A DNA stretch of 64,000 nt from Dehalococcoidia bacterium (GTDB lineage Bacteria; Chloroflexota; Dehalococcoidia; DSTF01; RBG-16-68-14): the NCBI GenBank assembly GCA_040882355.1, contig JBBEBM010000053.1, positions 1-64,000 on the forward strand, given 5' to 3'. Under the pieces are notes generated by a model that saw nothing but the letters and a program-made list of their open reading frames with translations, did no database searches and was not told the origin of the DNA. The position numbers and the translations under genes were made by a program. Shown one piece after another: positions 5,198-58,152 of this stretch (its first letter is position 1; the number at the start of each line of letters is the position of its first letter).

Positions 5198-5228
5198 CGG
5201 TAGCGGCGACCTTTAGGTCGCCACCAGC
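5198..5228 (+). repeat. GTAG-type REP-like hairpin
   Basis: GTAGCGGCGACCTTTAGGTCGCC; second copy at 21944-21974 with 2 mismatches in 31 nt. Confidence 0.75.
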
Positions 5229-7688: not shown

Positions 7689-9326
7689 GTGGCACCGCCC
7701 GCCCCCGCTAACACTCCCGCTGACCTCCACTCGCCCGCCCGCGGCCCCGTCTTCGGCAAGCGAGGCGTCGCTGCGAGCGGTCAGCCGCTGGCGACGCTTG
7801 CCGGGCTCGACGTGCTGCGCGGCGGCGGCAACGCGATCGATGCCGCGCTCGCCGTCTCGGCCGTGATGGTCGTCACCCAGCCCTACTCGAGCCACCTCGG
7901 CGGCGACGCCTTCACGATCATCCGCACCGCTTCCGGCGAGACGGTCGCGCTGAACGCGGGCGGCCGGGCGCCGCTCGCCGCCACACCCGAACGCTTCCCG
8001 GACGGGGTGCCGCTGCGCGGCCCGACCGCCGTCGCCGTGCCGGGGCTGGTCGACGCCTGGTGCGCGCTCCAGCAGCGCTTCGCCACCAGGCCGCTCGCCG
8101 AGCTGCTCGCGCCCGCGATCGCCCTCGCCCGCGACGGCTTCCCGACCTCGCAGAGCCTCGGCCGCGTCGCGCGCGGATCGCAAGACGAGCTCACCGCCGA
8201 CCCCGGCTGCAACGAGGTCTTCTTCGGCGAGGGCGTGGCCCGTGCGGGCAAAATCCTTCGCCAGCCCGACCTCGCGCGCACGCTCGAAGCGATCGCGTCG
8301 GACGGCCGCAACGGCTTCTACGGCGGCGCGGTAGGCAAGCGCATCACCGCGTACATGGAGGAACATGGTGGTCTGCTCTCGGACGAGGACCTGGCCCGCG
8401 ATCAGGCCGTCTGGGGCGAGCCGCTTCGCGTCGACTACCGCGGCTGCACGGTGTACGAGCAGCCGCTGCCCTCGCAGGGGTTCCTCGCGCTCGAGGCGCT
8501 TAACATCGTCGAGGGCTTCGACCTCGCGAATGCGCCGGCGACATCCGCCGACGCCGTCCACCCCTGCGCCGAGGCGATGCGCCTCGCCTTCGCCGACCGC
8601 GACGCCCATGTGGGCGATCCGGACGCCGTCGAGGTGCCGATCGAGCGCCTCCTGTCGAAGGAGCACGCTGCGGAGCTGCGCCAGCGCATCACAAACGGCG
8701 CGGAGGCGCCGACCACGTCGGCGCTGCGCGGCGGCGACACGACTTCGTTCGCCGTCGCGGACGAGCAGGGCAACCTGGTGAGCTTCATCCAGAGCATCTT
8801 CCACCCGTGGGGCAGCGCCGTCCTCGTGCCGGGCACCGGCGTCCTGCTGAACAATCGCATGCTCGGCTTCTCGCTTGACGCGGCCAGCCCGAACGCGCTC
8901 CGGCCCGGCATGCGCACCGTCCACACGCTGAATACCTGGCTCCTCGATGGACCCGACGGCGTCGTCTACGCCGGCGGCACGCCGGGCGCCGATTTCCAGG
9001 TGCAGACGAACCTCCAAGTGATCACGAACCTCGTCGACCGCCGCCTCGACCCGCAGAGCGCCATCGACGCGCCGAAGTGGGTGCTCACGGCCCGCGGCGA
9101 CCTCGCGCCGAAGTGGGTGCTCACGGCCCGCGGCGACCTCGCGCTCGAAGGGCGCTTCCCGCAGGAGACGCTCGACGAGCTGTCGAAGCGCGGCCACCGC
9201 GTGAAGCCGGGCGCGGCCTGGGAGACGACCTTCTCCCGCAGCCAGCTCGTCGCCCGGCGAGCGGACGGCACGCTCCTCGCCGCTTCCGACCTTCGCGGCG
9301 AGGGCTCGGCACTCGGCTGGAGCTAG
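7689..9326 (+). CDS. gamma-glutamyltransferase family protein
   Basis: GGNAIDAA, GDTTSFAVAD nucleophile Thr, GTPGAD. Confidence 0.9.
   Translation: MAPPAPANTPADLHSPARGPVFGKRGVAASGQPLATLAGLDVLRGGGNAIDAALAVSAVMVVTQPYSSHLGGDAFTIIRTASGETVALNAGGRAPLAATPERFPDGVPLRGPTAVAVPGLVDAWCALQQRFATRPLAELLAPAIALARDGFPTSQSLGRVARGSQDELTADPGCNEVFFGEGVARAGKILRQPDLARTLEAIASDGRNGFYGGAVGKRITAYMEEHGGLLSDEDLARDQAVWGEPLRVDYRGCTVYEQPLPSQGFLALEALNIVEGFDLANAPATSADAVHPCAEAMRLAFADRDAHVGDPDAVEVPIERLLSKEHAAELRQRITNGAEAPTTSALRGGDTTSFAVADEQGNLVSFIQSIFHPWGSAVLVPGTGVLLNNRMLGFSLDAASPNALRPGMRTVHTLNTWLLDGPDGVVYAGGTPGADFQVQTNLQVITNLVDRRLDPQSAIDAPKWVLTARGDLAPKWVLTARGDLALEGRFPQETLDELSKRGHRVKPGAAWETTFSRSQLVARRADGTLLAASDLRGEGSALGWS
9068..9139 (+). 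repeat. exact 36-bp tandem duplication, in frame within the GGT gene
   Basis: cgcgccgaagtgggtgctcacggcccgcggcgacct twice; APKWVLTARGDL twice. Confidence 0.95.
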
Positions 9327-9429: not shown

Positions 9430-10173
9430 ATGAACAAGCTAGACGGGCAGGTGGCGATCGTGACGGGCGCCTCGCGCGGCATCGGCCGGGCGGTGGCGAA
9501 GGAGCTGGCGGACTGGGGCGCCGCCGTGGTCGTCAACTACTTCCAGAGCCAGGAGCCGGCGGAGGAGCTGGTCGGCGAGATCGTGAGTAGCGGGGGCAGG
9601 GCGATCGCCGTGCGGGCAGGCGTAGGCCACCCCGATGACGTGCAGGCGATGGTGGAGAAGGCGCTCGCTGAGTTCGGCCAGATCGACATCCTGGTGAACA
9701 ACGCCGGCGTCAACCGCGACCGCACTCTGCGGCGCATGTCCGTCGAGGAGTGGCAGGAGGTGATCAACACCGACCTGAGCAGCGCGTTTTACTGCACCAG
9801 CGCCGTCCTTCCGCACATGATCGAGCGCACCTACGGACGGATCATCAACATGTCCAGCATCATCGGCCAGATGGGCAACGTCGGTCAGGCGAACTACGCC
9901 GCGGCCAAGGCGGGCCTGATCGCCTTCACGAAGTCGGCGGCCCAGGAGGTGGCGCGATACAACATCACGGTCAACGCCATGTGCCCCGGCTTCGTCGAGA
10001 CCGACATGGTGATCGCCCTCACCGATGAGGTGAAGGAAGCGCTGCTCAGCCGGGTGCCGCTGGGCCGCTTCGGCAAGCCGGAGGAGGTCGCCGCGTTCTG
10101 TCGCTTCCTCTGCACGGAGGGCGACTGGATAACCGGCCAACAGCTCAACCCCAACGGCGGCATGTACATGTAG
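9430..10173 (+). CDS. phaB: acetoacetyl-CoA reductase / 3-oxoacyl reductase (PhaB/FabG-like SDR)
   Basis: TGASRGIG, NNAGVNRDRT, NYAAAK, C-terminal NGGMYM resembling PhaB. Confidence 0.65.
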   Translation: MNKLDGQVAIVTGASRGIGRAVAKELADWGAAVVVNYFQSQEPAEELVGEIVSSGGRAIAVRAGVGHPDDVQAMVEKALAEFGQIDILVNNAGVNRDRTLRRMSVEEWQEVINTDLSSAFYCTSAVLPHMIERTYGRIINMSSIIGQMGNVGQANYAAAKAGLIAFTKSAAQEVARYNITVNAMCPGFVETDMVIALTDEVKEALLSRVPLGRFGKPEEVAAFCRFLCTEGDWITGQQLNPNGGMYM

Positions 10174-14566: not shown

Positions 14567-14608
14567 CCCATGACCCGCGCCGCTGCCTTCTTCCCACGAC
14601 CGGCGCTC

Positions 14609-14652
14609 GTAGGGGCGACCATCTGGTCGCCCTGGGCGACGAAGTCGCCCCA
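14609..14652 (+). repeat. GTAG-type REP-like double hairpin
   Basis: GTAG-GGGCGACCA-TC-TGGTCGCCC followed by GGGCGAC-GAA-GTCGCCC. Confidence 0.6.
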
Positions 14653-19803: not shown

Positions 19804-20733
19804 ATGAAACGACTCGTCACCCTGCTTGCGCTGGTCGCAGCGCTACTCGTCGCCGCACCGGTGCTGCTCGGCCCGACTGTTGGAGCGCAGGCCGAGCAGA
19901 AGGCGCTGGTCTCCGGCTGGTTCCGCGACCGTGAGGTCAAGTACTACGACTTCGGTATGAACACGGCGCTCGCTGGCACCGGCGTCGCTGTCGCGCCCAT
20001 CTACGTCTTCATCCACGGCATGAACGCCGACGGCACGCCCGACATGGTCGAGGGCCAGCACAACATCGTCGACGTCAGGCCCGGCGACACCGGCTACAGC
20101 GATCTCTGGCAGGTCAGTTTCGTGACCGTGCCCGACGACTACGAGCCCGACTCGATCACCTCGGAGGAGGAGATCGACACCTCCGGTTTCGATGTCGAGG
20201 CGACCGACACCTTCGTCAACTGCCCTATCGTGCCTGAGGGCACCACGCTGGAGGGCGGCGAACCGCTGGTGCAGGGCTGGTACAAGGACGAGCAGGTCTT
20301 CTACCCGGACTTCGGCCCGAACCCGGCGACAACAGCGCCCATCTGGGTGCTCATCCACGGCATGAACGCCGACGGCACGCCCGACGTGGTCGAGGGTCAG
20401 CATAACATCATCGATACCGTCCCGGGACAGGCCGATTACACGGCATTCTGGCGCGTCAACATGGTCACCGTGCCTGCCGACTACGGGCCGGACTCGATCC
20501 GCTCGGCGGAGGACGTGCTGGCGGCCGGCTTCGAAGTCACGCAGACCGACATGGTCGTGAACTGCCCCGTGACCGACGTCGCCGGCGTCGAGGTCGTCGC
20601 GATGCCCTCGACGGGCGGCACGTTCCCGGACGACGGCGGCTCATCGACGCCGTACTATGTCGCTGGCGCGTTCGCGGCGTTCGGGCTGCTCGCCGGCGGC
20701 GCAGGGCTCGCGTTCGCCCGACGCAGGCGCTAG
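19804..20733 (+). CDS. secreted protein with two internal repeats and an LPXTG-like C-terminal sorting signal (DUF7482-like, tentative)
   Basis: signal peptide; API.V.IHGMNADGTPD.VEGQHNI.D..PG..VNCP twice; MPSTGG + TM helix + RRRR. Confidence 0.8.
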   Translation: MKRLVTLLALVAALLVAAPVLLGPTVGAQAEQKALVSGWFRDREVKYYDFGMNTALAGTGVAVAPIYVFIHGMNADGTPDMVEGQHNIVDVRPGDTGYSDLWQVSFVTVPDDYEPDSITSEEEIDTSGFDVEATDTFVNCPIVPEGTTLEGGEPLVQGWYKDEQVFYPDFGPNPATTAPIWVLIHGMNADGTPDVVEGQHNIIDTVPGQADYTAFWRVNMVTVPADYGPDSIRSAEDVLAAGFEVTQTDMVVNCPVTDVAGVEVVAMPSTGGTFPDDGGSSTPYYVAGAFAAFGLLAGGAGLAFARRRR

Positions 20734-20780: not shown

Positions 20781-21848
20781 CTACGCCTTCGCCTTCACCA
20801 GGTCCCGCGCCGCGCTCTCGACCGGCGTGCGGTCGAAGAACGACGGGTTCATGCTCAGGTGGAGGCCGGCCGGGTTCGTGAAGACGAAGTCGCGGTAGTC
20901 GGCGTCGCTGAGCAGGCCCTTGTCGACGAGCTGGTGGCTTTCGAGCAGCACCTCCGACAGGTGCGGCACGTCCCAGTGGCCGATGTCGGAGCTGAAGAAC
21001 GGCTGCAGTCGCACGCCCAGCGGGTTGCCCTTCGCGTCCAGGGCGCGGTAGACGCTCATGTCGTCGGCCTCGCAGCCGAAGTAGAACTGCCGGCCGAACA
21101 TGTCGACGAAGTCCTCCTCGCGGTCGATCAGGCTCGACGCGAACTCGTCGTACTGCGCGTAGTCGCGCGGCCCGGTGCTGGGCGCCGCTCCGTTGCCGCG
21201 CTGCTCGCCTTCGACGTGAAAGGCCTCCGGCGCGTACTGGGCAAAGAGCTCGCCCAGCAGCGCCGTATCGAGCTTGCGCGGATCGTAGTTCTGGATGCCC
21301 TCGGCGTTGCGCTTCTCCCAGTGCTCCTCGAGTCCGTGGAGCAGGTCGCTCCCCCAGCCGGCGCCGCCTTCGAGGAAGCCGAACTGCAGGTCGGGGAAGC
21401 GCTTCGGCACGCCGCCCATGACGAGCGAGAGGCAGAGCTCGATCTGCTGGTAGGCGTGGCCCATGATGTGGTTGTACATGTAGCTCGACGGCGAGCGGCG
21501 CGCCTGCGGCATGTAGTGCAGCGCCGGCGCACCGTGCGACGTGACCGCGATCTTGTGCGAGCGGAACGCCTCCCAGACCGGGCTGTAGTCGTGGGCGCTC
21601 TCGTAGCCGTAGCAGTCGAAGTGAGCGGCGAGCGGGTACGCGCCCGGCGCCTCGCGTTCGAGCGCCGCGATCGGCCGGCCGACGCCCGCCGGGATCACGC
21701 ACACCTTCACGCCGAGCTTCGTCACGTAGTCCAGCTCGTCCAGCGCCTCCTCCGGCGTGTGCATCGGGATCATCGCCACCGATGTCATCCGGTCCTGGTA
21801 GGGCGCCGTAATCTCCCAGTTCATCGTGTTGAGCGCGCGCAGCGACAT
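20781..21848 (-). pseudogene. amidohydrolase-2 family protein, probably 5'-truncated
   Basis: FGFLEGG and FSSDIGHWD present; N-terminal metal-binding DxHxH-type segment absent; in-frame stop inside a REP hairpin just upstream. Confidence 0.55.
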
Positions 21849-21943
21849 GCGTTCCTCCTCGGCGGGTCAGACTTCAGCCTGACGCACCCCGATAGATACG
21901 CCGTAGGGCGCATCGTGTCAAGGGGCTCGCTCCGTCGAAGGCT

Positions 21944-21974
21944 CGGTAGCGGCGACCTTCAGGTCGCCATCAGC
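21944..21974 (+). repeat. GTAG-type REP-like hairpin, copy of 5198-5228
   Basis: CGGTAGCGGCGACCTTCAGGTCGCCATCAGC. Confidence 0.75.
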
Positions 21975-22023
21975 AGCGCCCCCTTCACAGCGCCGCCCAC
22001 CCGGGCAGCCTCGCCCTCTTCCG

Positions 22024-22260
22024 TCCGCGGGTCAGGCTTGAGCCTGACGAAAAACCGCAGCCCACCCGGCCGCGCGATTCGTGTCATTACGATTTGCAAA
22101 AACGCCCTCTCGCGCCGATCACGCCGGTTTGCCTCTCCGGCGCCGAATCTGGCGGGCCGGCCCCCTCGCGTGGCACGCCCACGCCGAGCTATCGAGGAAG
22201 AGGATAAGGGTGGCGGAAGATTGCGCGAAGGGGGCGGTGGCACGGGGGCCCCGGGACGCG
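22024..22260 (+). repeat. left arm of long imperfect inverted repeat
   Basis: aligns by eye with the reverse complement of 23689-24024. Confidence 0.8.
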
Positions 22261-22626
22261 CGGGCATCGACCCGCTCCGGCGACTCTAGCTGTAGCACAA
22301 ATGTGTTGACTTAGGAGGAATGTCGTGCTCTAATGTTTAGTGAACGGGTCGCGCGGAGCCAGGCCGTATCACCCACCTTTCATCGAGAATATATGTGCTG
22401 CGCTTGTGGAGGTCAAGAGGTCGTCACCATGGATACATGCGCCGGGGCCTCCCCTTCTGGCCTTCCTACCTCCGCCTCCGCCCTCCGTGCCACCCACCCC
22501 TTCGCGCTCCCCGCCGCAGCCCTTACCCTACGCTCGACAAGAAATCGTGGACGTGCAGCGCCCGGACGCAGGCCCGGCTACCTGGCGTACACTTATCGAG
22601 GCCGAGGAAGACTTAGTGACGGCCGC

Positions 22627-23178
22627 CTAGCGCGGAGCGTTCAGTCGCGGGTCACGGCTATCGAGGACGGCCAGCCGCGAGCTGGCTTGCACGCGGGTCG
22701 GGAAGACGATCAAGTTGTCTCCGAGACCGGTAGCGGATGGGACGAGGATACCCTCCGCGTCGCGATCGATCGCCGCTGCCGCCAGGGCCTGCGTCGGCTC
22801 GAAGTCATAGTCGCGGCTGAGGACGCCGGCGGCCAGCCCGAGTGCCGTCTCATCGTGGCAGTCGAGCACCGCCTCCAGTTCGACCTCCAGCTCGCTCAGC
22901 CGGAAGTCATTGAGCTTGCCGAGGAGCTCCACCGTGACGTGGCGAACGACCTCCCCCAGTGCGGTCTCTGGCCGCAAGGCGAGATAGAGAGCGGGCCACG
23001 TCTGGTGTGTGGAAAACTGGTCCGACCCCCGGTTGTAGCGACCCGAGACGAGCAGCGAGCCGGACGAATCGAGAGCCTCATACCTGCGCCGATGAAATCG
23101 CCATGCTCGGCCCTTCCAGCGCCCCGGACCAAGTCCAGCGATCGCCGCGCTCGCGTCCCAGCCGGTCGGCCTGGCCAC
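22627..23178 (-). CDS. RES domain toxin
   Basis: SGRYN (R), ALYLA..ETALGE (E), GILVPS (S), NLIVFP. Confidence 0.9.
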   Translation of the reverse strand: MARPTGWDASAAIAGLGPGRWKGRAWRFHRRRYEALDSSGSLLVSGRYNRGSDQFSTHQTWPALYLALRPETALGEVVRHVTVELLGKLNDFRLSELEVELEAVLDCHDETALGLAAGVLSRDYDFEPTQALAAAAIDRDAEGILVPSATGLGDNLIVFPTRVQASSRLAVLDSRDPRLNAPR

Positions 23179-23189
23179 TCGATGGTGGC

Positions 23190-23555
23190 CTACACGAACA
23201 CGCCGGAGTCGAGGGCTTCCAGCGCGGCTTCCACTCGGTCCACCCTGCCAACGCGGACCGCCTCTGCCGGGGTCATGCCACCCAGGTAACGGCTCTCGCT
23301 GTGGAACCAGCGGCGGACCGGGTCGCGGCCCCGGAAGGTCGCGCGGGCTCGCTCCTGCAGGCGCAGTAGCTCTGCCAGCCGCTGACGCGCCAGCTGCTGG
23401 GGATAGGCTGCCCCCGCCCTCCAGCGCTGAAGGGACCTGCGATTGCTGTCCAGCGCCTGCGCCAGGTCGTCCTCCGACATGCCCAACGACTTCTCCAGCG
23501 TGTCGAGCGCCTGGCGAGGAGTCACTTCAAGCGTCGGTGCCAATGCGCTCATCAT
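23190..23555 (-). CDS. Xre/MbcA/ParS-type antitoxin
   Basis: N-terminal HTH; C-terminal WFHSESRYLGGMTP..LEALDSGVF; TTGACA-18-TAGCAT promoter 5 nt before ATG (leaderless). Confidence 0.9.
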   Translation of the reverse strand: MMSALAPTLEVTPRQALDTLEKSLGMSEDDLAQALDSNRRSLQRWRAGAAYPQQLARQRLAELLRLQERARATFRGRDPVRRWFHSESRYLGGMTPAEAVRVGRVDRVEAALEALDSGVFV

Positions 23556-23688
23556 TTCTCATGCTAGCCGTTCGACCCGCGTTTTGTCAACCAAAGTTCG
23601 CCTCCTTATGTTCGGCGGACAACGAGTCCGAAGGGCGCAGGTCAGACTGCTCGACAAGAAAGCGTTGGCAAGGGCCCGCTGCCGCTTT

Positions 23689-24024
23689 CGCATTCCGCGG
23701 CCAAGCCCGCCGCCGCGCACATCCGCGCTCTCCCGCCGGGGCCTTACCCTAACGACGACAACCCGGCGCGGGCATGCGGCGCTCAACACCCACCCGCCAG
23801 ATTCGCGCTCCGGAGGAGATTCGAGGGCCTCGCCCGAAAAAGGCGATTTTGCAAAACGTACTGCCACGTTTCGCGCGGTCTCCGCCCGCGGCAGAGCAGC
23901 GCAAGGCGCTTCGTACCCTCTCCTTTTGGGAGAGGGTCGGCCGGAGGCCGGGGTGAGGGACTGCCACGTTTCGCGCGGGCCGAGCGGGCTGCGGTTCCCG
24001 TCAGGCTAAAGCCTGACCCGCGGA
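23689..24024 (-). repeat. right arm of long imperfect inverted repeat, with a 100-bp insertion
   Basis: inverted copy of 22024-22260; 19-bp direct repeat actgccacgtttcgcgcgg at 23860 and 23960. Confidence 0.8.
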
Positions 24025-24133
24025 ATGATAGGGCTCTGGCGCCGGCTAGGGCAGTGGGGTGGGGTCGAACTTCGAGCCTCCAGCCTGGGGCCGCGTGCTA
24101 TCCTGGCCCCATACACACAACCGGAGGTGGTTC

Positions 24134-24889
24134 GTGACGACTGATCTGGAAACTACGATGACCTCGCCCGTGCCCCAGGAACCCCCCGACACCGGCGACC
24201 ACGCCAAGGTCGCCCTGGTCATCGCCGCGCACCCGGACGACGCCGATTTCGGCGCGGCGGGCACGGCGCACCTGTGGTCGAAGCAGGGCTGGGAGTTCTA
24301 CTACCTCGTCTGCACCGACGGCTCGAAGGGGACCGAGGACCCTTCGCTGACGCCGGACCGCCTGGTGCCCATGCGCCAAAAGGAGCAGCGCGCCGCCGCC
24401 GAGACGCTGGGCGTGAAGGACGTCTTCTTCCTCGAAGGCCAGGTCGACGGCGAGCTGACGTACACGCGCAAGCTCCTCGGCGACGTGGTGCGGGTGATCC
24501 GCCAGCTCAAGCCCTACGCCGTCTTCACGCACGAACCGTCGGAGGTCGTCATCCGGAACTCCTTCGTCAACCACTCCGACCACCGCACGACGGGCCTCGT
24601 CTCGATCGATGCGGTGTACCCCTCCGCGCGCGACCGCCTCAACTTCCCGGAGCACCTGGACGAAGGGCTGGAGCCGCACAAGGTGAAGGAGATCTTCATC
24701 TGGGGCTCGGAGAAGGCCGAGTTCGTCGTCGACATCAGCGAAGCGGTCGAGACGAAGATCCAGGCGCTGCTCCGCCACACCAGCCAGTTCGGCGAGGGCT
24801 CAGAGTTCCTCAAGTTCGTCCGCGAGCGCTGGAAGGGCGAGGACGGCCGCTACACGGAACGCTTCCGCCGCGTCGTCCTGTTCCGCTAG
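24134..24889 (+). CDS. PIG-L/LmbE family deacetylase
   Basis: AHPDDAD, NHSDH; GGAGG SD before GTG. Confidence 0.9.
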   Translation: MTTDLETTMTSPVPQEPPDTGDHAKVALVIAAHPDDADFGAAGTAHLWSKQGWEFYYLVCTDGSKGTEDPSLTPDRLVPMRQKEQRAAAETLGVKDVFFLEGQVDGELTYTRKLLGDVVRVIRQLKPYAVFTHEPSEVVIRNSFVNHSDHRTTGLVSIDAVYPSARDRLNFPEHLDEGLEPHKVKEIFIWGSEKAEFVVDISEAVETKIQALLRHTSQFGEGSEFLKFVRERWKGEDGRYTERFRRVVLFR

Positions 24890-29930: not shown

Positions 29931-30875
29931 CTAGTAGAGCAGCGCGAGGTCGGCGTGCTGCCGGAAGAGCTCGATCGCGCGTTCCAGCTTGCGCCGGCCG
30001 GAGAAGCGCGTCCTGTCGTAGAGCTCGTCCACCTGCTCGACAGTGCGCACCGTGCCTTCGGGCGCCAGCAGTACGGTGATTTCAAGCCCGCTGCCGCCGA
30101 CGCGATCGAAAAAGTAGGGGCTGGGCTGCTGGCCACCCGTCAAGATCAGGCAGTCCGGCTCGGTCGCGAGCGCGGCCAGGTGGAGGTCCATCTTGTCGAA
30201 GCGGTTCACCACCGCCTTGTGGCCGTGCTGCAGGAAGTAGGGCTGGCCCGGGTCGGAGGAGATGGGCCCGATCATCACGAACTCAACGGCCTCGTCTTCG
30301 GGCGCCTCGTCGAACAGACGCGAGGCGCGCAGCGCCTCGGCCAGCTCGCGGATGGTCGGCCCGGCGAGCAGGCGGTCCTCCGGCACGACAGCCAGGCACA
30401 TGAGGTTGCGTTCCGCCAGCGCGTCGCGCACCTTCGTCAGGGCGCGCTCCTTCTGGCGCGTGACGATCACACCGAGCAGCGCATCGCCGAGCGCGCCAGC
30501 CGCGGAAGTGAGGTCGCTCAGCCGCAAGGCGTCCGCCTGAGCGCTGACCAGCACGACCTTCGCCGAGAGCGCGCTCGCGAGGTCCTTCGCATCGCCGGCC
30601 GGCGCTTCGATCAGGCAGACGGCGCCCGAGGTGTCGGCTTCACGGGCCTGCACCTGCGCGTCCTGAGCGCTGACGGCGCTCGCGGGCGCCGTACAGCCCG
30701 GCACCGACGCGAGCGCGCGCGCGTCGTCCTGCGCGGTTGCGGCGTCCTCGTCCTGGGAGCGCACGCGGAGCAGGCGGACGGCCTTGCCCTGCTCGGCGAG
30801 CAGCGCGCCGAGCGCCGCCGTCGCCGCCGTGCGGCCTTCGCCGGGCTGGAGCGAAGCGATCAGGATCGTGGTCAT
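29931..30875 (-). CDS. BioD-like/DRTGG domain protein (phosphotransacetylase N-terminal-like)
   Basis: degenerate P-loop PGEGRT, VPEDRLLAGPT, CLILTGG. Confidence 0.75.
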   Translation of the reverse strand: MTTILIASLQPGEGRTAATAALGALLAEQGKAVRLLRVRSQDEDAATAQDDARALASVPGCTAPASAVSAQDAQVQAREADTSGAVCLIEAPAGDAKDLASALSAKVVLVSAQADALRLSDLTSAAGALGDALLGVIVTRQKERALTKVRDALAERNLMCLAVVPEDRLLAGPTIRELAEALRASRLFDEAPEDEAVEFVMIGPISSDPGQPYFLQHGHKAVVNRFDKMDLHLAALATEPDCLILTGGQQPSPYFFDRVGGSGLEITVLLAPEGTVRTVEQVDELYDRTRFSGRRKLERAIELFRQHADLALLY

Positions 30876-30990
30876 CGGCGGTAGTATAACGTCCACCGTT
30901 ACCCTGGGCACGTCCGGCGCCCGGCCGTGCGCCCCCACCGCGTGTCCCCTCGGAGGAACGCCCCGGCAGGTTCCGAGGCGCCCCTCACAC

Positions 30991-31042
30991 TCCCTCACCC
31001 CGGCCTACCGGCCACCCCTCTCCCGCCCAGGCGGGAGAGGGG
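30991..31042 (+). repeat. CCCTCACCCC..CCCTCTCCC..GGGAGAGGG miniature repeat
   Basis: near copy in reverse orientation at 23916-23960. Confidence 0.7.
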
Positions 31043-31058: not shown

Positions 31059-32903
31059 TTATTCTACCGTCACGGTCTTCGCCAGGTTGCGTGGCTGGTC
31101 CACGTCGCAGCCGCGCCAGACGGCGATGTGGTAGGCGAGCAATTGCAGCGGCAGCACCGTCAGCGCAGGCAGCAGCAGACGCGATGTCTCCGGCACCTCG
31201 ATCACCTCGTCAGCCTTCGACGCCAGCTCGTCATCGCCCTCGTTGATCAGCGCGATGACGATGCCGTCGCGGGCGCGCACCTGCTCGATGTTCGAGAGCA
31301 TCTTCTCGCGCAGGCCGTCGCGCACGGCGATCGCAAGCGTCGGCATGGACTCGTCGATGAGCGCGATCGGGCCGTGCTTCATCTCGCCCGCCGGGTAGCC
31401 CTCGGCGTGGATGTAGCTGACCTCTTTCAGCTTGAGGGCGCCCTCCATGGCGACGGGGTACTGGAGGCCGCGGCCGAGGAAAAGGAAGTGGTGATAGCGA
31501 TGGAATCGATGCGCGAGCTGCTCGATCTGGCCGGCGCGCTCGAGGACGCGGCCCATCTGCTCCGGCAGGTGCGCGAGCGGCGCGACCAGCTCCGCCAGCC
31601 GCGCCTCGTCTAACCGGCCGCGCAGCCGCCCGATGTGGCACGCGAGCAGGTAGAGGCCGACCATCGACGCCGTCAGCGTCTTCGTGCTCGCGACACCGAT
31701 CTCGGGGCCGCAGCGCGTGTAGAACGTCCCGCCGGCGACGCGCGTCGACTGCGCACCGGGGGTGTTGCAGACGGTGATCTGGAGGGCGCCACGCTCGCGA
31801 GCTTCGTGCATCGCCTCCAGCGTATCGACGGTCTCACCGGACTGCGCGACGGAGATGACGAGCGTCTCCGGCCCGATCAGCGCGTCCCGGTAGCGGAACT
31901 CCGACGCGTTATCGACCTCCGCCGGCAGGCCGGCGAGCGCCTCGAAGTAGTGGCGGCCGACCATCGCGGCGTGCAGGCTCGTGCCCATCGCGATGAGCAC
32001 GACGCGCTGCACCGAACGCAGCGTCTCGTCCGCGATCTCGAGCTCGCCCAGGTCGACGCGGGGCGGGTCGAAGAGCACCCTGCCGCGGAAGGTGTCGAGC
32101 ACGCACTCGGGCTGCTCCATGATCTCCTTGAGCATGAAGTGCTTGTAGACGCCCTTCGCCGCCGCCACAGGGTCCTGCGGCACCGTCTGCGGCGCCTTCT
32201 CGATCGCCTCGCCGCCCGCGTTCCAGTAGCGCACTTCCTCGCGCGAAAGCTCTACCAGCTCACCGTGGCCGAGGAAGGCGACGCGACGCGTCAGCGGCAG
32301 CAGCGCGGGCAGGTCGCTCGCGACGAAGCGCTCGTGCTCGCCGTAGCCGACGACGACGCCGCCGGCGTTGCCGACACGGGCCGCGACCAGCCGGCCGGGG
32401 TGCCGGCGGCTGAGCGCGACGATCGCGTGGGCGCCGTGAACGCGTCCTATCGTCCGGCGCAGCGCCGACGGCAGGTCGTCGGCCTGCGCCAGGTACGTCT
32501 CGAGCAGGTGAGCGAGCACCTCGGTGTCCGTCTCGGAGTGGAAGCGGTGCCCGGCCGCGCGCAGCTCGTCGCGCAGCGCCAGGTAGTTCTCGACGATGCC
32601 GTTGTGCACGACCGCGACATCACCCGTGCAGTCGAGATGCGGGTGGGCGTTCTCGTCCGATGGCTTGCCGTGCGTCGCCCAGCGCGTGTGCGCCAGGCCG
32701 AGCGTCCCCGGAGGGTAGACGCCCTCCAGCGTCGCGTTCAGGTTGCCGATCTTGCCCGCCAGCTTCCTCAGGTGCAGACGGCCGTCGCCGTCCAGGACGG
32801 CGAAGCCGGCGCTATCGTAGCCGCGGTACTCGAGCCGCTGAAGGCCCTCCAGCAGCAGTGGGGCCGCTTCCCGCAGGCCTGCGTAGCCGATGATGCCGCA
32901 CAT
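31059..32903 (-). CDS. glmS: glutamine--fructose-6-phosphate transaminase
   Basis: MCGII, HTRWATHG, EGALKLKE, PRNLAKTVTVE. Confidence 0.98.
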   Translation of the reverse strand: MCGIIGYAGLREAAPLLLEGLQRLEYRGYDSAGFAVLDGDGRLHLRKLAGKIGNLNATLEGVYPPGTLGLAHTRWATHGKPSDENAHPHLDCTGDVAVVHNGIVENYLALRDELRAAGHRFHSETDTEVLAHLLETYLAQADDLPSALRRTIGRVHGAHAIVALSRRHPGRLVAARVGNAGGVVVGYGEHERFVASDLPALLPLTRRVAFLGHGELVELSREEVRYWNAGGEAIEKAPQTVPQDPVAAAKGVYKHFMLKEIMEQPECVLDTFRGRVLFDPPRVDLGELEIADETLRSVQRVVLIAMGTSLHAAMVGRHYFEALAGLPAEVDNASEFRYRDALIGPETLVISVAQSGETVDTLEAMHEARERGALQITVCNTPGAQSTRVAGGTFYTRCGPEIGVASTKTLTASMVGLYLLACHIGRLRGRLDEARLAELVAPLAHLPEQMGRVLERAGQIEQLAHRFHRYHHFLFLGRGLQYPVAMEGALKLKEVSYIHAEGYPAGEMKHGPIALIDESMPTLAIAVRDGLREKMLSNIEQVRARDGIVIALINEGDDELASKADEVIEVPETSRLLLPALTVLPLQLLAYHIAVWRGCDVDQPRNLAKTVTVE

Positions 32904-33120
32904 CGTAAGGTCCTTTCACTCTACATTGGCTCGTCGTCGGTCCGTCCAGTGAATATGGGCAGGGTCAGGCTCCTTCGGCTGTAAGATGCTTCGCTTCGCT
33001 CAGCATGACAAAGGGAGCGGCCCTCTCGACCGACTCGAGACGTTCTTGTGAATTGGTTGGAAACTTGCTGTGTACGTTGCCGCGGAGTGGGGCGGGGGCT
33101 GCAGTCTCCCCCGGCACGTT

Positions 33121-33252
33121 GGAGGGCCTTTGTCAGGGACTCCCATCCCTGGTTTGTGCCGTCCATGACGACCGTGCAGCCGAGAGGCCATCCGCCGAGT
33201 TGTTCGATGAGCCTCTTCCTCGTCATCCGCCGCCAGCGGATCAGGCGCTTAT
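33121..33252 (-). ncRNA. glmS ribozyme (GlcN6P-activated)
   Basis: minus strand AGCGCC..GACGAGG..ATCGA..TCGGCGGAT..ACAAA..GACAAA, in order, upstream of glmS. Confidence 0.9.
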
Positions 33253-33324
33253 CATGCCACCGACCTCAGTCGATGGGGTGTCCCGTTGTCGCGGCGTCCT
33301 GCCGTATCACCTCCCTTTTCTGGC

Positions 33325-48715: not shown

Positions 48716-49284
48716 ATGAGGAACCTATGGCGCCTGTGGCTGGTCGTCGGGGTGCTTGCGCTCGGCGCGTTCGTAGTGGCGNNNNNNNNNNCCCCCACGG
48801 CGATGACGGCGGCAACGCAACCGCCACCGAAGAGGCGACCTCCGAAGACGGCGGTGACGGCGACGCGGACGCGACGGATACGCTCGAAGATGGCGAGGAG
48901 GACCCGACTGAGGAAGACGGCGACGGCGGAAGCTCGGGCTCGTCAGACGTACCGCTGCCGGATGGCGCGAATGAGGAGTCGAGCCTGACGTACTCCGGAT
49001 CGCAGCTCCCCTTCCCGATTCCTTCCGAATCGGGCGTCGATGCCAGCACCTTTGGCGAGCTCACCGTCAAGACCTACACCGTGGACGGCTCGCCGGAGGA
49101 CATCGTCGACTTCTACAAGGACAACCAGGGCGATTGGGAAGAAGCCTATGGAGTGACGACCTCGGAGGGCGGGCTGCTCCTCTGGACCATGGATGACGGA
49201 CAGCAAGCCGCCTGGATCGTGACAGCCCCGGGCAGCGAGGACGGTACTACAAGCCTCACCGTTGCCAGCGGCCACGCCGAATAA
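48716..49284 (+). CDS. probable acidic lipoprotein spanning an assembly gap
   Basis: signal peptide before the Ns and an acidic ORF after; 10 N at 48782-48791. Confidence 0.6.
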
Positions 49285-49359: not shown

Positions 49360-49575
49360 TCAGAGCAGGCGGCGGACCGGTTTGCGGCCCGGCCGCGGGT
49401 CGTAGTTCGACTTGAACATCTCCAGCTTGTCGCGCTCGATGAGATACTTGCCGGCGAAGAGCACCGCCGGCACCTTCTTCTGCTTGATCAGCCGGCGCAG
49501 GCTCTGCGGATGAATACGCAGGATCCTCGCCGCTTCCACGAGATCGAGGTAGTTATCGAACGGGTTGGATGCCAT
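49360..49575 (-). CDS. small HTH_17 (excisionase/BldC-like) DNA-binding protein
   Basis: LDLVEAARILRIHPQSLRRLIKQKKVPA; AAAGGGGAG SD. Confidence 0.88.
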   Translation of the reverse strand: MASNPFDNYLDLVEAARILRIHPQSLRRLIKQKKVPAVLFAGKYLIERDKLEMFKSNYDPRPGRKPVRRLL

Positions 49576-54361: not shown

Positions 54362-56965
54362 CTACTTCCTGGGCCTTCGATACAACGTAGCTACGAGCCG
54401 CACCGGCTTGTTGCCAGCCTTGCCTACCGCAAAGCGTGGCAGCCTACGATGCGTCATGAAATACGCCAACGGGTCAGAGCGGCAACCGATTACCTCAGCG
54501 GGCGACAGCGACCAAGCCTCCGCAAGCGCGTCCTCCACCAATGACCTCCAGTCGCGCTGTTGAAGTGTCGAGAACACCTGTCCCGGCGCGTAGGGTTGGC
54601 GCTGCATGAGAACGACATCGTCACTCAGCGAGATCTTCCCATCGGCGTAATCAAACGCCCGCCTTTCTAGCAGGACCATTCTGTGTTTCTTGTGGAACCA
54701 CGCGGCGAGCGCGCGTGTCGACCGGTACCTTCGGCCGGCATATGCGATCGGAAGGTTTCCTACATCGCCACCAAAGGCCCCGACCTCGGCTGCAAGCGTG
54801 GCGCGTTGGTCGCTGCGTTCCGCAGCGCGTGCCTCTACCAGTTCACGCTGCTCAGTTGCCCACCTCGCTAAGCTGCCCGGCTCAACTAGGGCTACGCCCA
54901 AGTCTCTGGCCGCACGGCTGGTCTTGCCCAAGATCATTCCAGGCAGGTTTGTCGGGCGTACAGCTAGACCGCCGGCATATACCACCCCGTCAGCTGCCCA
55001 CCGCCCATGAGTCATCCTACGCAGTCCAGGAAGAGCTGCTCGCCCCACAGGACGCCCGTCCGCTCCGGAGAGCGGCCGCAAGTACCGGCCTATCTCCCGC
55101 AGTCCCGCCTTCTCGTATGCCGTCAAATCGTCGTAGTCCAGGCAATTTAAGCGTGCCAGGAGCCTCGCCGGTTCCACCACCAGCCAATCGTTCGCGCGCA
55201 CGACGCAGACGGGCGCGGTGTTCGGTTCGGCCAAATAGAGGTTGACGTCGATCGCAGCACACATCTGGGCAAGCGCCACAGTGAACCCAGGCGAGAAAAT
55301 ACCTCCGCTCACGATCGATTGGGCATTCTCCCGTGGATCCTTGCGCAACCACACTCGAACACACGTACCTCCATCTCTCACGCTGGGTCGATGATCTACG
55401 CGTCGCAGCAGGGGCCGCGACGCGAGTCCTTGCTCGAACTCCAGCGCCCGGGTTGCCTGCTGCCCCTGGTCGAACCTGCGGGTCGTCACACAAACGTGGT
55501 CGCCGAGCATGAAAACGGAAAAGAATCCGATGCCGTACTTGCCCGTTGATTCAAAGCCTTTTGCAAGGAGACCCGGAAGCTCGTGCTGCATTAGCAGCGA
55601 GCCCCAGTAGGTGGTACCGAAGTCGAGGAGCGGCCCGGTGAGAACTCTCTCGGACATGCCAATGCCGTTGTCTTCGACCTCCATCCAAGGCCCGGCGCGA
55701 TCTTCACCGAACCGAATTGTGACGTCCCCCCAGTCCTCCGGCCGTGCTTCGCACACACGACGCGCGCGCACCGCGTCACACGCATTCTGGATCAGCTCTC
55801 GCACCGGTATTAGCCCGCTGCTTCGTTCCCCATACAATGTCTCGCCGCCTAGCTTCTGGACCAGCCCCGCCACGTCGGTGACCTGTATTCTCGCATCCAC
55901 GGGCACCCAGCCGTCGCAGCGAATGAAAAGAGCAAGGCGCATCGCGTCTTCCGCACCTCGAACGCCCTTCGCGACGAATCTCTGCCTGCCGCTGTCGGTG
56001 AGCAAGGAGTCCACCTCCCTCAGTTCGTCGTCTGCCAATCGAAGGAGGTCAAAGCCCAGCCACCAGGCTTCGGCATCCTCTGCTGGGAAACCGTGCGCCG
56101 ATGCGTACACGAGTCGGTCAGTCTCTAGATGTGGTTGCTGGACCTTCTCTTGGAACACCCAGTGGAGTTGTGATCCATCTCCAGGTTTGCGAACGGCCCT
56201 GAGGAACCCTGGTGCGCGCTCACCGTAGATGTGTGCGGCGTCGGCTGTGCGCACCAGGCAAGCAAGCGGCAGAGGATCCACAGTCCAATCACGAGGGGAC
56301 CCCGGTGGCGCACCGAGCTTCTGACCGAACTGCGCGTTCAGGTTTGCGACAGGCCACCAGTGGCTATGGCCGAGCCTACCGATGAGCGGCGCATAAGTAT
56401 TCCGCAGGTCAACATCCTCTATGAGGTGGTATTCAGCATCGCCTTCGCGGTCGCGCCAGGAGATCCGTGGCAGCTGTTCGGCGCGTCTGGCGTGCAGGTT
56501 GCGGAGAACTTGCTCCTTCGCCTCGCGCTCCATCTCCGGGCTAACGTCAGCGAGTTCCTCGGCAGATGGGACGCGACCAAGCTCTGCGGTCTTCAGAGCG
56601 ATGACGGTGTCCTGCCAGCTTACGTCCTGCTTGAGCTCAGCCAGACCCCCAGGGTAGGCCGCCAGGCCCAATCCGAGGTCGTGTACAAGAAAGGCACCGC
56701 CCAGGATGAACGCCTCCACGGGATTGATCTCAAAGGCCTCGCCGGCGATCAGGTCGCCGGTCTCCCACAAGGCATCCAGGTGGGAGACGTCATGCACCGT
56801 GAATTCGGGCAGGTCGCGCGCGATTTCGGCGGCAAGCACCGCCGCGCGCTCGCGGAATCTCAGGAACGCGTTTCGCAGCCGCTCACGCTGCTCGCGAAAC
56901 TCGTCTTCGCCCGGCTGTTCGGCCAGGGTGCTCTTCCAAAGCCGCGTCCTCTCGAATGGTAGCAC
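54362..56965 (-). CDS. N-terminal HD-like domain + HSP90-like GHKL ATPase (HD-CE type)
   Basis: FTVHD..H, VHDLG, RTADA; RELIQNACDA, DNGIGM, GKYGIGFFS. Confidence 0.85.
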   Translation of the reverse strand: MLPFERTRLWKSTLAEQPGEDEFREQRERLRNAFLRFRERAAVLAAEIARDLPEFTVHDVSHLDALWETGDLIAGEAFEINPVEAFILGGAFLVHDLGLGLAAYPGGLAELKQDVSWQDTVIALKTAELGRVPSAEELADVSPEMEREAKEQVLRNLHARRAEQLPRISWRDREGDAEYHLIEDVDLRNTYAPLIGRLGHSHWWPVANLNAQFGQKLGAPPGSPRDWTVDPLPLACLVRTADAAHIYGERAPGFLRAVRKPGDGSQLHWVFQEKVQQPHLETDRLVYASAHGFPAEDAEAWWLGFDLLRLADDELREVDSLLTDSGRQRFVAKGVRGAEDAMRLALFIRCDGWVPVDARIQVTDVAGLVQKLGGETLYGERSSGLIPVRELIQNACDAVRARRVCEARPEDWGDVTIRFGEDRAGPWMEVEDNGIGMSERVLTGPLLDFGTTYWGSLLMQHELPGLLAKGFESTGKYGIGFFSVFMLGDHVCVTTRRFDQGQQATRALEFEQGLASRPLLRRVDHRPSVRDGGTCVRVWLRKDPRENAQSIVSGGIFSPGFTVALAQMCAAIDVNLYLAEPNTAPVCVVRANDWLVVEPARLLARLNCLDYDDLTAYEKAGLREIGRYLRPLSGADGRPVGRAALPGLRRMTHGRWAADGVVYAGGLAVRPTNLPGMILGKTSRAARDLGVALVEPGSLARWATEQRELVEARAAERSDQRATLAAEVGAFGGDVGNLPIAYAGRRYRSTRALAAWFHKKHRMVLLERRAFDYADGKISLSDDVVLMQRQPYAPGQVFSTLQQRDWRSLVEDALAEAWSLSPAEVIGCRSDPLAYFMTHRRLPRFAVGKAGNKPVRLVATLYRRPRK

Positions 56966-57090: not shown

Positions 57091-58152
57091 TTAGCGCGCC
57101 ACCCGCGCCGGCTCCGCGTCCACCGCTTTCACCAGGTCGATGGCGCGGGCGAGAGTGTCGAGGCGCTCAGTAGGTGTACGGCCCTCGGGGTCGACACGGA
57201 GGGTGGTGACGCCGGCGTCGCGGTAGACGCGGATGCGATCCTTCACCATCGCGTCGGTGCCGAGCAGGTTCGTCTTCAGCACCAGCTCGTCCGGCACCAG
57301 CTCCGCCGCCTCGTCGCGCTTGCCGTCGAGCCACAAGCGCTGCGCCTCCTGCGCGACGTCCTCGTAACCGGCGCGCTGGAAGGCGGCGTTGTAGAAGTTG
57401 TGCTCGCGCGAGCCCATCGCGCCCAGCGTGAAGGCGAGCCCCGGCTTGCGGCGCGGGGTCAGCGACTCCGCGTCGTCGCCGAACGCCACGACGCCGCCCG
57501 CCTGCAGGTCGAGGTCGGCGAGCGAGCGCCCGGCCTTCGTCGCGCCGCTGGCGATGTGGTCGAAGAAGACGCCGGCGTGGTCAGGCATGAACGAGGTGCC
57601 GAGCCAGCCATCGGCGAGCTCGCCGGTGAGCGCGAGGCTTCGCGGGCTGAGCGTGGCGAGGTAGACGGGGATGTCGGGCACCGCGGGCGAGCCGGAGCGC
57701 AGCGGCTTGCCCTCGCCGCCCGGCAGCGGCAGCGTGTAGACCTTCCCCTGGTAGCTGAGCCGCTCGCCCTTCGTCGCGATGCGCACGATCTCGATGAGCT
57801 CGCGCATGCGCGTGACCGGCCGGTCGAACGGGATGCCGTGCCAGCCCTCGATCACCTGCGGGCCGCTGGTGCCGAAGCCGAGCACGAATCGATTGTTCGA
57901 GAGCGACGCGAGCGACATCGCGGTCATCGCGACAAGCGCGGGCGTGCGGGTACCGGCCTGCATGATGCCGGTGCCCAGCCGGATGGTCGACGTCTTGGCG
58001 GCGAGGTAGGCGAGCGGCGTGACGGCGTCGTAGCCCCAGGCCTCGGCGGACCAGACATCGTGCACGCCCAGCCGCTCGGCCTCGACGACGAAGTCCGTCG
58101 CGCCGTCCCAGTCGCTGTTGCGCGCCCCGCCGAAGGTAATCGAGATACGCAT
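57091..58152 (-). CDS. LLM class (probably F420-dependent) oxidoreductase
   Basis: AEAWGYDA, GTSGPQVIEGWHG. Confidence 0.9.
   Translation of the reverse strand: MRISITFGGARNSDWDGATDFVVEAERLGVHDVWSAEAWGYDAVTPLAYLAAKTSTIRLGTGIMQAGTRTPALVAMTAMSLASLSNNRFVLGFGTSGPQVIEGWHGIPFDRPVTRMRELIEIVRIATKGERLSYQGKVYTLPLPGGEGKPLRSGSPAVPDIPVYLATLSPRSLALTGELADGWLGTSFMPDHAGVFFDHIASGATKAGRSLADLDLQAGGVVAFGDDAESLTPRRKPGLAFTLGAMGSREHNFYNAAFQRAGYEDVAQEAQRLWLDGKRDEAAELVPDELVLKTNLLGTDAMVKDRIRVYRDAGVTTLRVDPEGRTPTERLDTLARAIDLVKAVDAEPARVAR

Follow-up and report, generated by a model that had tools for sequence, protein, structure and literature searches.

The locus considered here is the segment 22024-24024 of contig JBBEBM010000053.1 from a Dehalococcoidia bacterium (assembly GCA_040882355.1), analysed within the first 64,000 nucleotides of that contig (hereafter the window), and it holds a RES-Xre toxin-antitoxin (TA) pair between two long repeat copies in inverted orientation, arm A on the left and arm C on the right, whose outer ends carry a hairpin of the repetitive extragenic palindromic (REP) type. 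On the best reading the locus is more like a mosaic of decayed palindromic units than like a functioning transposon, and we find it somewhat probable that a chromosomal RES-Xre operon lies here amid decayed palindromic-repeat clutter, with the hairpins and a terminator-like stem plausibly insulating transcription. The arms themselves, together with a third and incomplete copy situated between them (copy B), represent a local module of ~237 nt with several hairpins, present twice in full and once in part, the outer end of which is a REP-type hairpin (Table 1).

Table 1. Coordinates and properties of the features found at and around the RES-Xre locus; positions are those of the window.
Feature	Position	Strand	Properties
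Solo REP-like unit (26 nt)	21859-21884	+	88% to arm copy, one stem mismatch
Unit of the second palindrome family, GGCGACC-N4-GGTCGCC	21944-21974	+	Between solo hairpin and arm A
Arm A, full repeat copy, non-coding	22024-22260	+	REP hairpin 22031-22048, small second hairpin, long imperfect inner hairpin
Terminator-like stem and T-run inside arm A	22056-22074	-	7 pairs, 6 of them G-C, tail GTTTTTCGTC
Spacer between arm A and copy B	22261-22479		Lower GC, minus-strand promoter-like site at 22416-22388
Promoter-like site in the spacer, toward arm A	22416-22388	-	Consensus match
Partial copy B, inner ~97 nt of arm only	22480-22576	-	Shuffle-tested alignment to A and C
RES-domain toxin gene, 183 aa	22627-23178	-	PF08808, E 9.2e-20
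Xre-type antitoxin gene, 121 aa	23190-23555	-	PF09722, E 6.8e-8
Promoter-like site ahead of the TA operon (TTGACA, 18 nt, TAGCAT)	23561-23590	-	10/12 consensus matches
Promoter-like site toward arm C, leaving the TA promoter region	23584-23612	+	9/12 consensus matches
Arm C, full repeat copy, inverted	23689-24024	-	REP hairpin 24000-24017 at outer end
Extra stretch in arm C	23879-23978		81 nt of new sequence and a duplicated 19-mer

Compared with the reverse complement of arm C, arm A is homologous over about 237 nt (spans of 237 and 236 nt), with 175 of 225 ungapped columns identical (78%) and 23 gapped positions. When 22024-22340 was aligned locally, with gaps, to the reverse complement of 23560-24024, from which an extra stretch of 100 nt had been removed, the score was 109, whereas 300 dinucleotide shuffles gave a mean of 21.4 (sd 2.6) and a maximum of 31, and with the first 85 nt dropped the inner part still scored 36 against a shuffle maximum of 32. 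Identity is highest in the outermost 40 nt (36/39) and declines to ~70-80% inward, and the pair is the longest among the 36 inverted-repeat pairs of the whole window. The inverted repeat claimed in a preliminary description of this DNA is thus real, and the five shared sequence blocks that it listed are all present and in the same order. Each arm is furthermore a discrete unit, the homology ending at short inverted CCGCGG-based termini of 7-10 nt, and CATTCCGCGG is present at both ends of arm C. Tile comparison of the window revealed no further arm-like place beyond this locus, an arm-like match at 58083-58144 (score 36, 1 of 636 tiles) being gap-rich, located inside a luciferase-like gene and taken as chance.

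While the arms stand, the picture of a clean pair does not, since a partial copy, a solo hairpin and an insertion in one arm have to be added to it. Copy B is oriented as arm C, lies 50 nt past the RES stop codon and corresponds to arm A positions 129-226; it scores 45 against arm A and 37 against arm C, neither of which is reached in any of 500 shuffles. The identities among the three copies (70/95 for B and A, 65/90 for A and C and 68/89 for B and C, that is 72-76%) make them about equidistant. Arm C is 336 nt long owing to 100 nt without counterpart in arm A, which show up as one ~100-column gap on the arm A side when 22024-22300 and the reverse complement of 23640-24024 are aligned with MAFFT, and this insertion is bounded by a perfect direct repeat of 19 nt (23860-23878 and 23960-23978, 100% identical). 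The inserted sequence contains a unit of ~50 nt with a stem CCCTCTCC/GGAGAGGG, followed by GGCCGG..CCGG and then GGTGAGGG, and a second, inverted copy of this unit is found near 30988-31042, downstream of the gene at 29931-30998. The unit appears to represent a third family of small mobile palindromes, the 19-nt repeat being the target duplication. Judging from the 78% identity, the 23 gapped positions and the 100-nt insertion in only one of them, the arms appear to be old.

The arms do not look like decayed genes. Open reading frames (ORFs) that run through the arms and the spacer have a flat GC content over the three codon positions (0.62-0.74), which is a non-coding signature, as against a third-position GC (GC3) of 0.80-0.96 and a second-position GC of 0.40-0.51 in the genuine genes of the region, and no Pfam match was obtained for any arm or spacer ORF. 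The suggestion that the arms could be remnants of two paralogous genes is contradicted by these observations, and in the best-conserved block the substitutions are likewise not biased toward third positions (1/6, by eye). Within the segment a coding signature is found only in the RES and Xre ORFs, which are indeed, as originally described, its sole recognisable genes. A search of 5.8 billion proteins with the left-arm ORF returned only the ORF itself (46 candidates), a search of 1.84 billion representatives returned itself and two marginal, long repetitive proteins (E 4e-4 and 9e-4), and the right-arm ORF found nothing in the protein search (10 candidates), such translated searches having low power for non-coding DNA. 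The spacer shows neither a coding signature nor a significant fold (z 0.11 and 0.70). The notion that it might harbor a degenerate second TA copy was discarded, since its scores of 22 and 20 against the TA region are no higher than those of shuffles (mean 20.4, max 30), and when the non-coding flanks were searched by tblastn with the TA and flanking proteins, no match was better than E > 0.6. An invertible promoter switch formed by arm A and copy B around the spacer was rejected on the grounds that the 48-nt arms are only 77% complementary and that no recombinase is found in the window.

Both full arms begin with a common unit of 26 nt (22024-22049 on the plus strand and 23999-24024 on the minus strand), the two differing only at a loop base, and as DNA both form the same hairpin with a 7-bp stem, a 4-nt loop and -7.0 kcal/mol (z -2.53 for arm C). 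The hairpin pattern occurs three times in the window and not once in 100 shuffles. The third occurrence is the solo copy 165 nt to the left of arm A, the stem of which is weakened (-4.1 kcal/mol, z -0.68); it is found 10 nt upstream of the start codon of an amidohydrolase-family gene, and its 5' edge overlaps the Shine-Dalgarno sequence of that gene on the opposite strand. All three hairpins and all three arm copies of the window fall within 2.2 kb. The GGCGACC-N4-GGTCGCC family likewise has three copies in the window (5198-5228, 14605-14632 and 21944-21974), all in one orientation, and none of 100 shuffles yields three. Its units are preceded by GGTAG or CGTAG, which resemble the GTAG head that is a feature of classical REPs. 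The head of the arm hairpin is in the window and in other Chloroflexota loci TC(C/G)GCGG or similar and not a conserved GTAG, and only some of the proteobacterial loci (L001, L025 and L034) have GTAG or CTAC beside the hairpin core.

The distribution of the hairpin in other genomes was obtained by scanning one public genome collection for the exact 22-nt pattern; locus taxonomy was read from record titles, and gene calls at the loci were crude and GC3-based. The exact 22-mer was found at 36 loci, the source genome not being among them, and half of these (18/36) come from 11 Chloroflexota or Dehalococcoidia metagenome-assembled genomes (MAGs), several of which have 2-4 loci. The remaining 18 belong to Beta-, Gamma- and Deltaproteobacteria, Actinomycetota, a planctomycete and an Elusimicrobia MAG, and the exact 22-nt hairpin spans at least five phyla. 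It lies outside called ORFs at 32 of the 36 loci and within one at 4. Where genes were called on both sides (26 loci), these are co-directional in 16 cases, convergent in 7 and divergent in 3, one of the convergent cases (L014) containing an uncalled ORF that changes its class, and the adjoining genes are of housekeeping type (rpmA, ruvA/ruvC, ilvC/leuA, prfA/prmC, nuoL, serS and similar). With up to 2 mismatches allowed in the core, additional copies appear at many loci, a single locus having as many as 4 near copies, and some stem variants retain their pairing by way of double changes (GTCTGGCT/AGCCAGAC, GTCGGGCT/AGCCCGAC and GACAGGCT/AGCCTGTC). The ends of the arms are therefore a genuine REP-like element, in that they are formed by a short imperfect palindrome which is extragenic and repeated and whose stem is kept by compensating changes.

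Elsewhere the hairpin is mostly solo or in direct tandem, and the multi-copy loci of Chloroflexota have it in direct orientation (L009, L014, L016, L020, L031, L032 and L035), but inverted doublets 36-82 nt apart are found in a Gaiellales genome (L019) and in a Steroidobacteraceae genome (L034). No similarity to the arms beyond the hairpin is seen at the 36 loci, the longest match being 57 nt at 79% identity; relatives of the TA or flanking genes are likewise absent from them, and there is no synteny with the window, to which they have only 7 short coding matches. At proteobacterial loci the hairpin adjoins other hairpins with a GGCT(T/G)(C/A)AGCC centre and CTACA-type heads. In the Chloroflexi MAG of L014 two direct copies of a 41-nt hairpin unit (8260-8300 and 9985-10025, 88% identical) bracket most of a gene for a secreted protein of 569 aa, one of the copies being inside the 3' end of the gene. 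The exact 18-nt core of the hairpin gave no match in a full-text literature search, which excludes subscription journals, and the hairpin and the other repeat families appear to be undescribed in the literature.

The genes between the arms are, by sequence, in all likelihood an ordinary Chloroflexota RES-Xre type II TA pair. The toxin has 282 homologues, the best of which, itself excluded, are 55-79% identical, and since those that are named belong to Dehalococcoidia or Chloroflexota, the pair is a common family in the lineage. R27, R47, R50, E76 and S148 of the toxin are invariant in 31 aligned homologues, and the invariant Arg, Glu and Ser probably constitute its catalytic triad. The PF09722 match of the antitoxin exceeds the cut-off of that family, its helix-turn-helix domain (PF20432) scores 23.2 bits, just under the cut-off of 25.8, and in NCBIfam the pair scores under the subfamily cut-offs. 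The nearest solved structures are those of MbcT and MbcA of Mycobacterium tuberculosis (PDB 6fkg), and the pair has in common with this MbcTA system the RES toxin in which Arg, Glu and Ser residues are invariant, the Xre antitoxin with a C-terminal toxin-binding domain, and the gene order, with the antitoxin first, a gap of 11 nt and a promoter-like site just upstream, although the sequence relation is only distant (E 1.3e-3 for the toxin and 1.5e-14 for the antitoxin). The locus occupies a 2.3-kb space between two divergent genes, an Amidohydro_2 family gene at 20781-21848 on the minus strand and a PIG-L family gene on the plus strand, which starts at 24134, 110 nt from the hairpin end of arm C. 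The GC3 of the RES and Xre genes is 0.80 and 0.83, that of the flanking genes 0.94-0.96 and that of window genes mostly 0.81-0.97.

Nothing that was found demonstrates that the 2-kb unit is able to move. The scan for protein families covered 61 window proteins, three further ORFs being seen as translations only, and no transposase, integrase or Y1 family was found among those scanned, nor are there tRNA genes in the window, where the remaining genes are of ordinary metabolism and housekeeping. No direct repeat is shared, by eye, between the flanks ...CTCTTCCG and ATGATAGG..., and there is consequently no target duplication to be seen; in both respects the preliminary description was accurate. 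Around the hairpin in the 36 public loci, none of 130 flanking genes belongs to a Y1/RAYT (REP-associated tyrosine transposase) or other transposase family (E up to 1e-5). A plasmid or phage origin of the segment was considered and dismissed, as blastn against 72,556 plasmid and 50,697 phage records gave no match. An integron cassette was rejected as well: attC sites share one orientation and have conserved AAC...GTT core triplets, and these triplets are, by eye, lacking in copy B and in the inner part of arm C; in addition arm A is inverted, and there is no integrase among the scanned window proteins.

The region contains three promoter-like sites where 0.2 would be expected, and these, like the terminator-like site, are consensus matches only. 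The one assigned to the TA operon ends 6 nt ahead of the Xre start codon, and the terminator-like stem inside arm A is on the strand of the operon and placed to stop leftward transcription from the TA region. The Xre protein would be expected to neutralise an NAD+-targeting RES toxin and to repress the promoter at 23561-23590, and the hairpins together with the terminator-like stem of arm A may serve to end or insulate leftward transcription of the TA operon before the co-directional amidohydrolase gene. As to origin, the intergenic space between two housekeeping-type genes may have been enlarged and filled with small palindromic repeats, one copy of the module (arm C) later being hit by another small repeat, and the inverted arrangement could have come about by independent deposition of repeats in both of the intergenic spaces beside the operon or by an old local duplication.

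A consensus fold of the three copies suggests three modules, namely the REP hairpin, a second one of small size and an inner one that is long and imperfect and equals copy B, and this fold contains 7 double-change pairs as opposed to 2.9 in shuffles, of which 1 in 500 attains 7; with three sequences, and a structure derived from these same sequences, such covariation may be taken as a hint only. Folded singly, the arms give z -2.27 and -1.98 on the strand that has the hairpin at its 5' end, which is unremarkable. The sole Rfam match of the window at gathering thresholds is a glmS ribozyme, and with E up to 5 the region 21700-24300 gave only a 15.9-bit noise match to a small nucleolar RNA. That ribozyme (33110-33260, minus strand, 85 bits, E 4e-18) is located upstream of the GlmS gene at 31059-32903.

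In its mixture of units the locus is reminiscent of bacterial interspersed mosaic elements (BIMEs), in which palindromic units are clustered as mosaics between enterobacterial genes and which may help to terminate transcription or to stabilise mRNA. Common to both are several types of palindromic units, alternating or in tandem and with conserved linking motifs, within one intergenic space, but BIMEs are not known to enclose genes, and the units found here are of families that the searched literature does not describe. Inverted pairs of REPs (REPINs) resemble the present arrangement in several ways: both are based on an imperfect, short palindrome of which related genomes have multiple extragenic copies, and both have two inverted REP units of one family, hairpin-forming ends and no target duplication. 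REPINs fold as a whole into one hairpin of roughly 90-200 nt and occur in tens to hundreds of copies per genome, with a cognate RAYT that is typically flanked by the same REP; the window has 3 hairpins in its 64 kb, all of them at this locus. The REPINs described in PMC3337134 are, however, ~89 bp long and form one continuous hairpin with spacers of 34-110 bp, whereas here 1,949 nt and two genes separate the hairpins; the homologous arms of ~237 nt furthermore far exceed a REP, and a RAYT is found neither among the scanned window proteins nor beside the hairpin in the 36 loci. [quoted passage not shown] In both cases two non-coding elements of ~240-260 bp in opposite orientation surround ~1.4-1.9 kb of cargo without a transposase, the total being 2.47 kb there and ~2.0 kb here. 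The same paper gives TIME-COMP ends as identical or 1 nt different, with 38-bp Tn3-type terminal repeats and 5-bp target duplications (PMC4133298), in contrast to the present arms, in which 78% of the aligned columns agree and which lack both Tn3-type repeats and a flanking duplication.

Several observations nonetheless weigh against a mere accumulation of repeats around a resident operon. The only mobile-type genes of the region are exactly enclosed by the two full copies with their heads outward, an orientation that is expected by chance in one case of four and that a composite element predicts; the confinement of all hairpins and arm copies to 2.2 kb makes the arm look like a local sequence and not like a dispersed family seeding independent insertions; the GC3 of the TA genes is at the low end of window genes and compatible with acquisition; the insulator role would derive from consensus scans only; and on the outward strand the folding of arm RNA is unremarkable (z 0.15 and -1.44). 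A missing target duplication is furthermore to be expected of transposition of the HUH/Y1 type. The idea, advanced in the preliminary description, of a REPIN-like composite has to be considered, according to which the 2 kb form, or once formed, a non-autonomous element with REP-headed arms, stabilised by its TA cargo and moved in trans by a RAYT or an IS200-type HUH enzyme. Full-length inverted arms with the hairpin at their extreme outer ends, their discreteness and CCGCGG-based termini, a cargo consisting of the TA pair only and the inverted doublets of the same hairpin in other phyla would all suit such an element, as would the precedent that elements of ~260 bp around a cargo of ~2 kb can transpose, as TIME-COMP1 does (PMC4133298). 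We nevertheless regard this composite as quite improbable. The REP-type ends are confirmed, but of mobility there is no positive evidence: the arms differ at 22% of aligned columns and by 23 gapped positions and the 100-nt insertion, while the functional composites described in PMC4133298 have near-identical ends, and 1,949 nt separate the hairpins. Neither copy B nor the solo hairpin suits a two-ended element, no further arm copy is found in the window, in the 36 loci, in plasmids and phages or by searching two protein collections with translated ORFs, no RAYT or transposase is near the hairpin anywhere that was examined, and the multi-copy arrangements of Chloroflexota are direct and not inverted.

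The position of copy B has suggested a different history, namely that a doublet of arm A, spacer and arm C existed first and that the TA module entered arm C by way of a shared stretch of ~100 nt, in a Campbell-like integration of a circle, leaving copy B and the inner part of arm C as direct repeats on either side of a 1.1-kb TA module. The module (22577-23688) is indeed exactly bracketed by these two repeats in the same orientation, copy B is confined to the arm's inner ~97 nt and ends ~50 nt from the RES stop, and the GC3 of the TA genes is somewhat below that of their neighbours. Copy B is however no closer to arm C than to arm A, and the event would therefore have to be as old as the split between A and C, or else copy B is simply a third member of the family; the spacer is moreover not self-complementary, so that a former long hairpin element is not evident, and no integrase or recombinase is found among the scanned window proteins, all of which makes the insertion scar an unlikely explanation. 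It has also to be considered whether the arms are the 3' parts of paralogous outward non-coding transcripts, either regulatory RNAs or long 3' regions linked to the TA locus, that would be driven from promoter-like sites within the segment and end at the terminal hairpins. Promoter-like sites face each arm (22416-22388 on the minus and 23584-23612 on the plus strand) in greater number than expected, the terminator-like stem is on the outward strand of arm A, and the double-change pairs in the consensus fold exceed those of shuffles, if only on 3 sequences and a structure derived from them. It is however the other strand, which starts with the hairpin at its 5' end, that has the better folds and the covariation, the outward strand giving the z-scores mentioned above; the T-run is lost in arm C, Rfam has no match for the region at E up to 5, and the two promoter regions are by eye not homologous. 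Outward transcripts of this kind thus seem very unlikely indeed, and a decayed mosaic of palindromic units around a chromosomal operon is the reading that we retain.

A few other features of the window deserve mention. The gene for a gamma-glutamyltranspeptidase contains a perfect tandem duplication of 36 nt (12 codons) at 9068-9139, and that for a DUF7482 protein an internal repeat of 179 nt (19993-20171 and 20335-20513, 78% identity) that matches a two-domain Pfam hit. A run of 10 N, which is a gap or masked, is found at 48782-48791 inside an ORF without Pfam match. On the minus strand at 54362-56965 there is an ORF of 867 aa that was outside the family scan, fails the GC3 filter and has a composition atypical for the window, and a few kb upstream of it there is an excisionase-like gene of the HTH_17 family (49363-49575), along with two ORFs that lack a Pfam match; these surroundings may be foreign DNA.

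Were the segment after all a relic, or a rare example, of a cargo-carrying composite bounded by REPs, in which two REP-headed elements of ~240 nt had captured a RES-Xre module, and moved as single-stranded DNA by an enzyme of the Y1/RAYT type in trans, which we hold to be very improbable, REPIN-type mobility would extend from cargo-free elements of ~100 nt to gene transfer and to Chloroflexota, and REP/RAYT-type systems, so far to our knowledge known only to copy tiny cargo-free hairpins, would be able to move genes. As a decayed mosaic the locus is instead an example of how TA operons and several families of palindromic repeats may share an intergenic space and thereby mimic a transposon, and the repeat families themselves, including a hairpin that occurs across phyla in Chloroflexota, Actinomycetota, Proteobacteria and others, could merit a systematic census.

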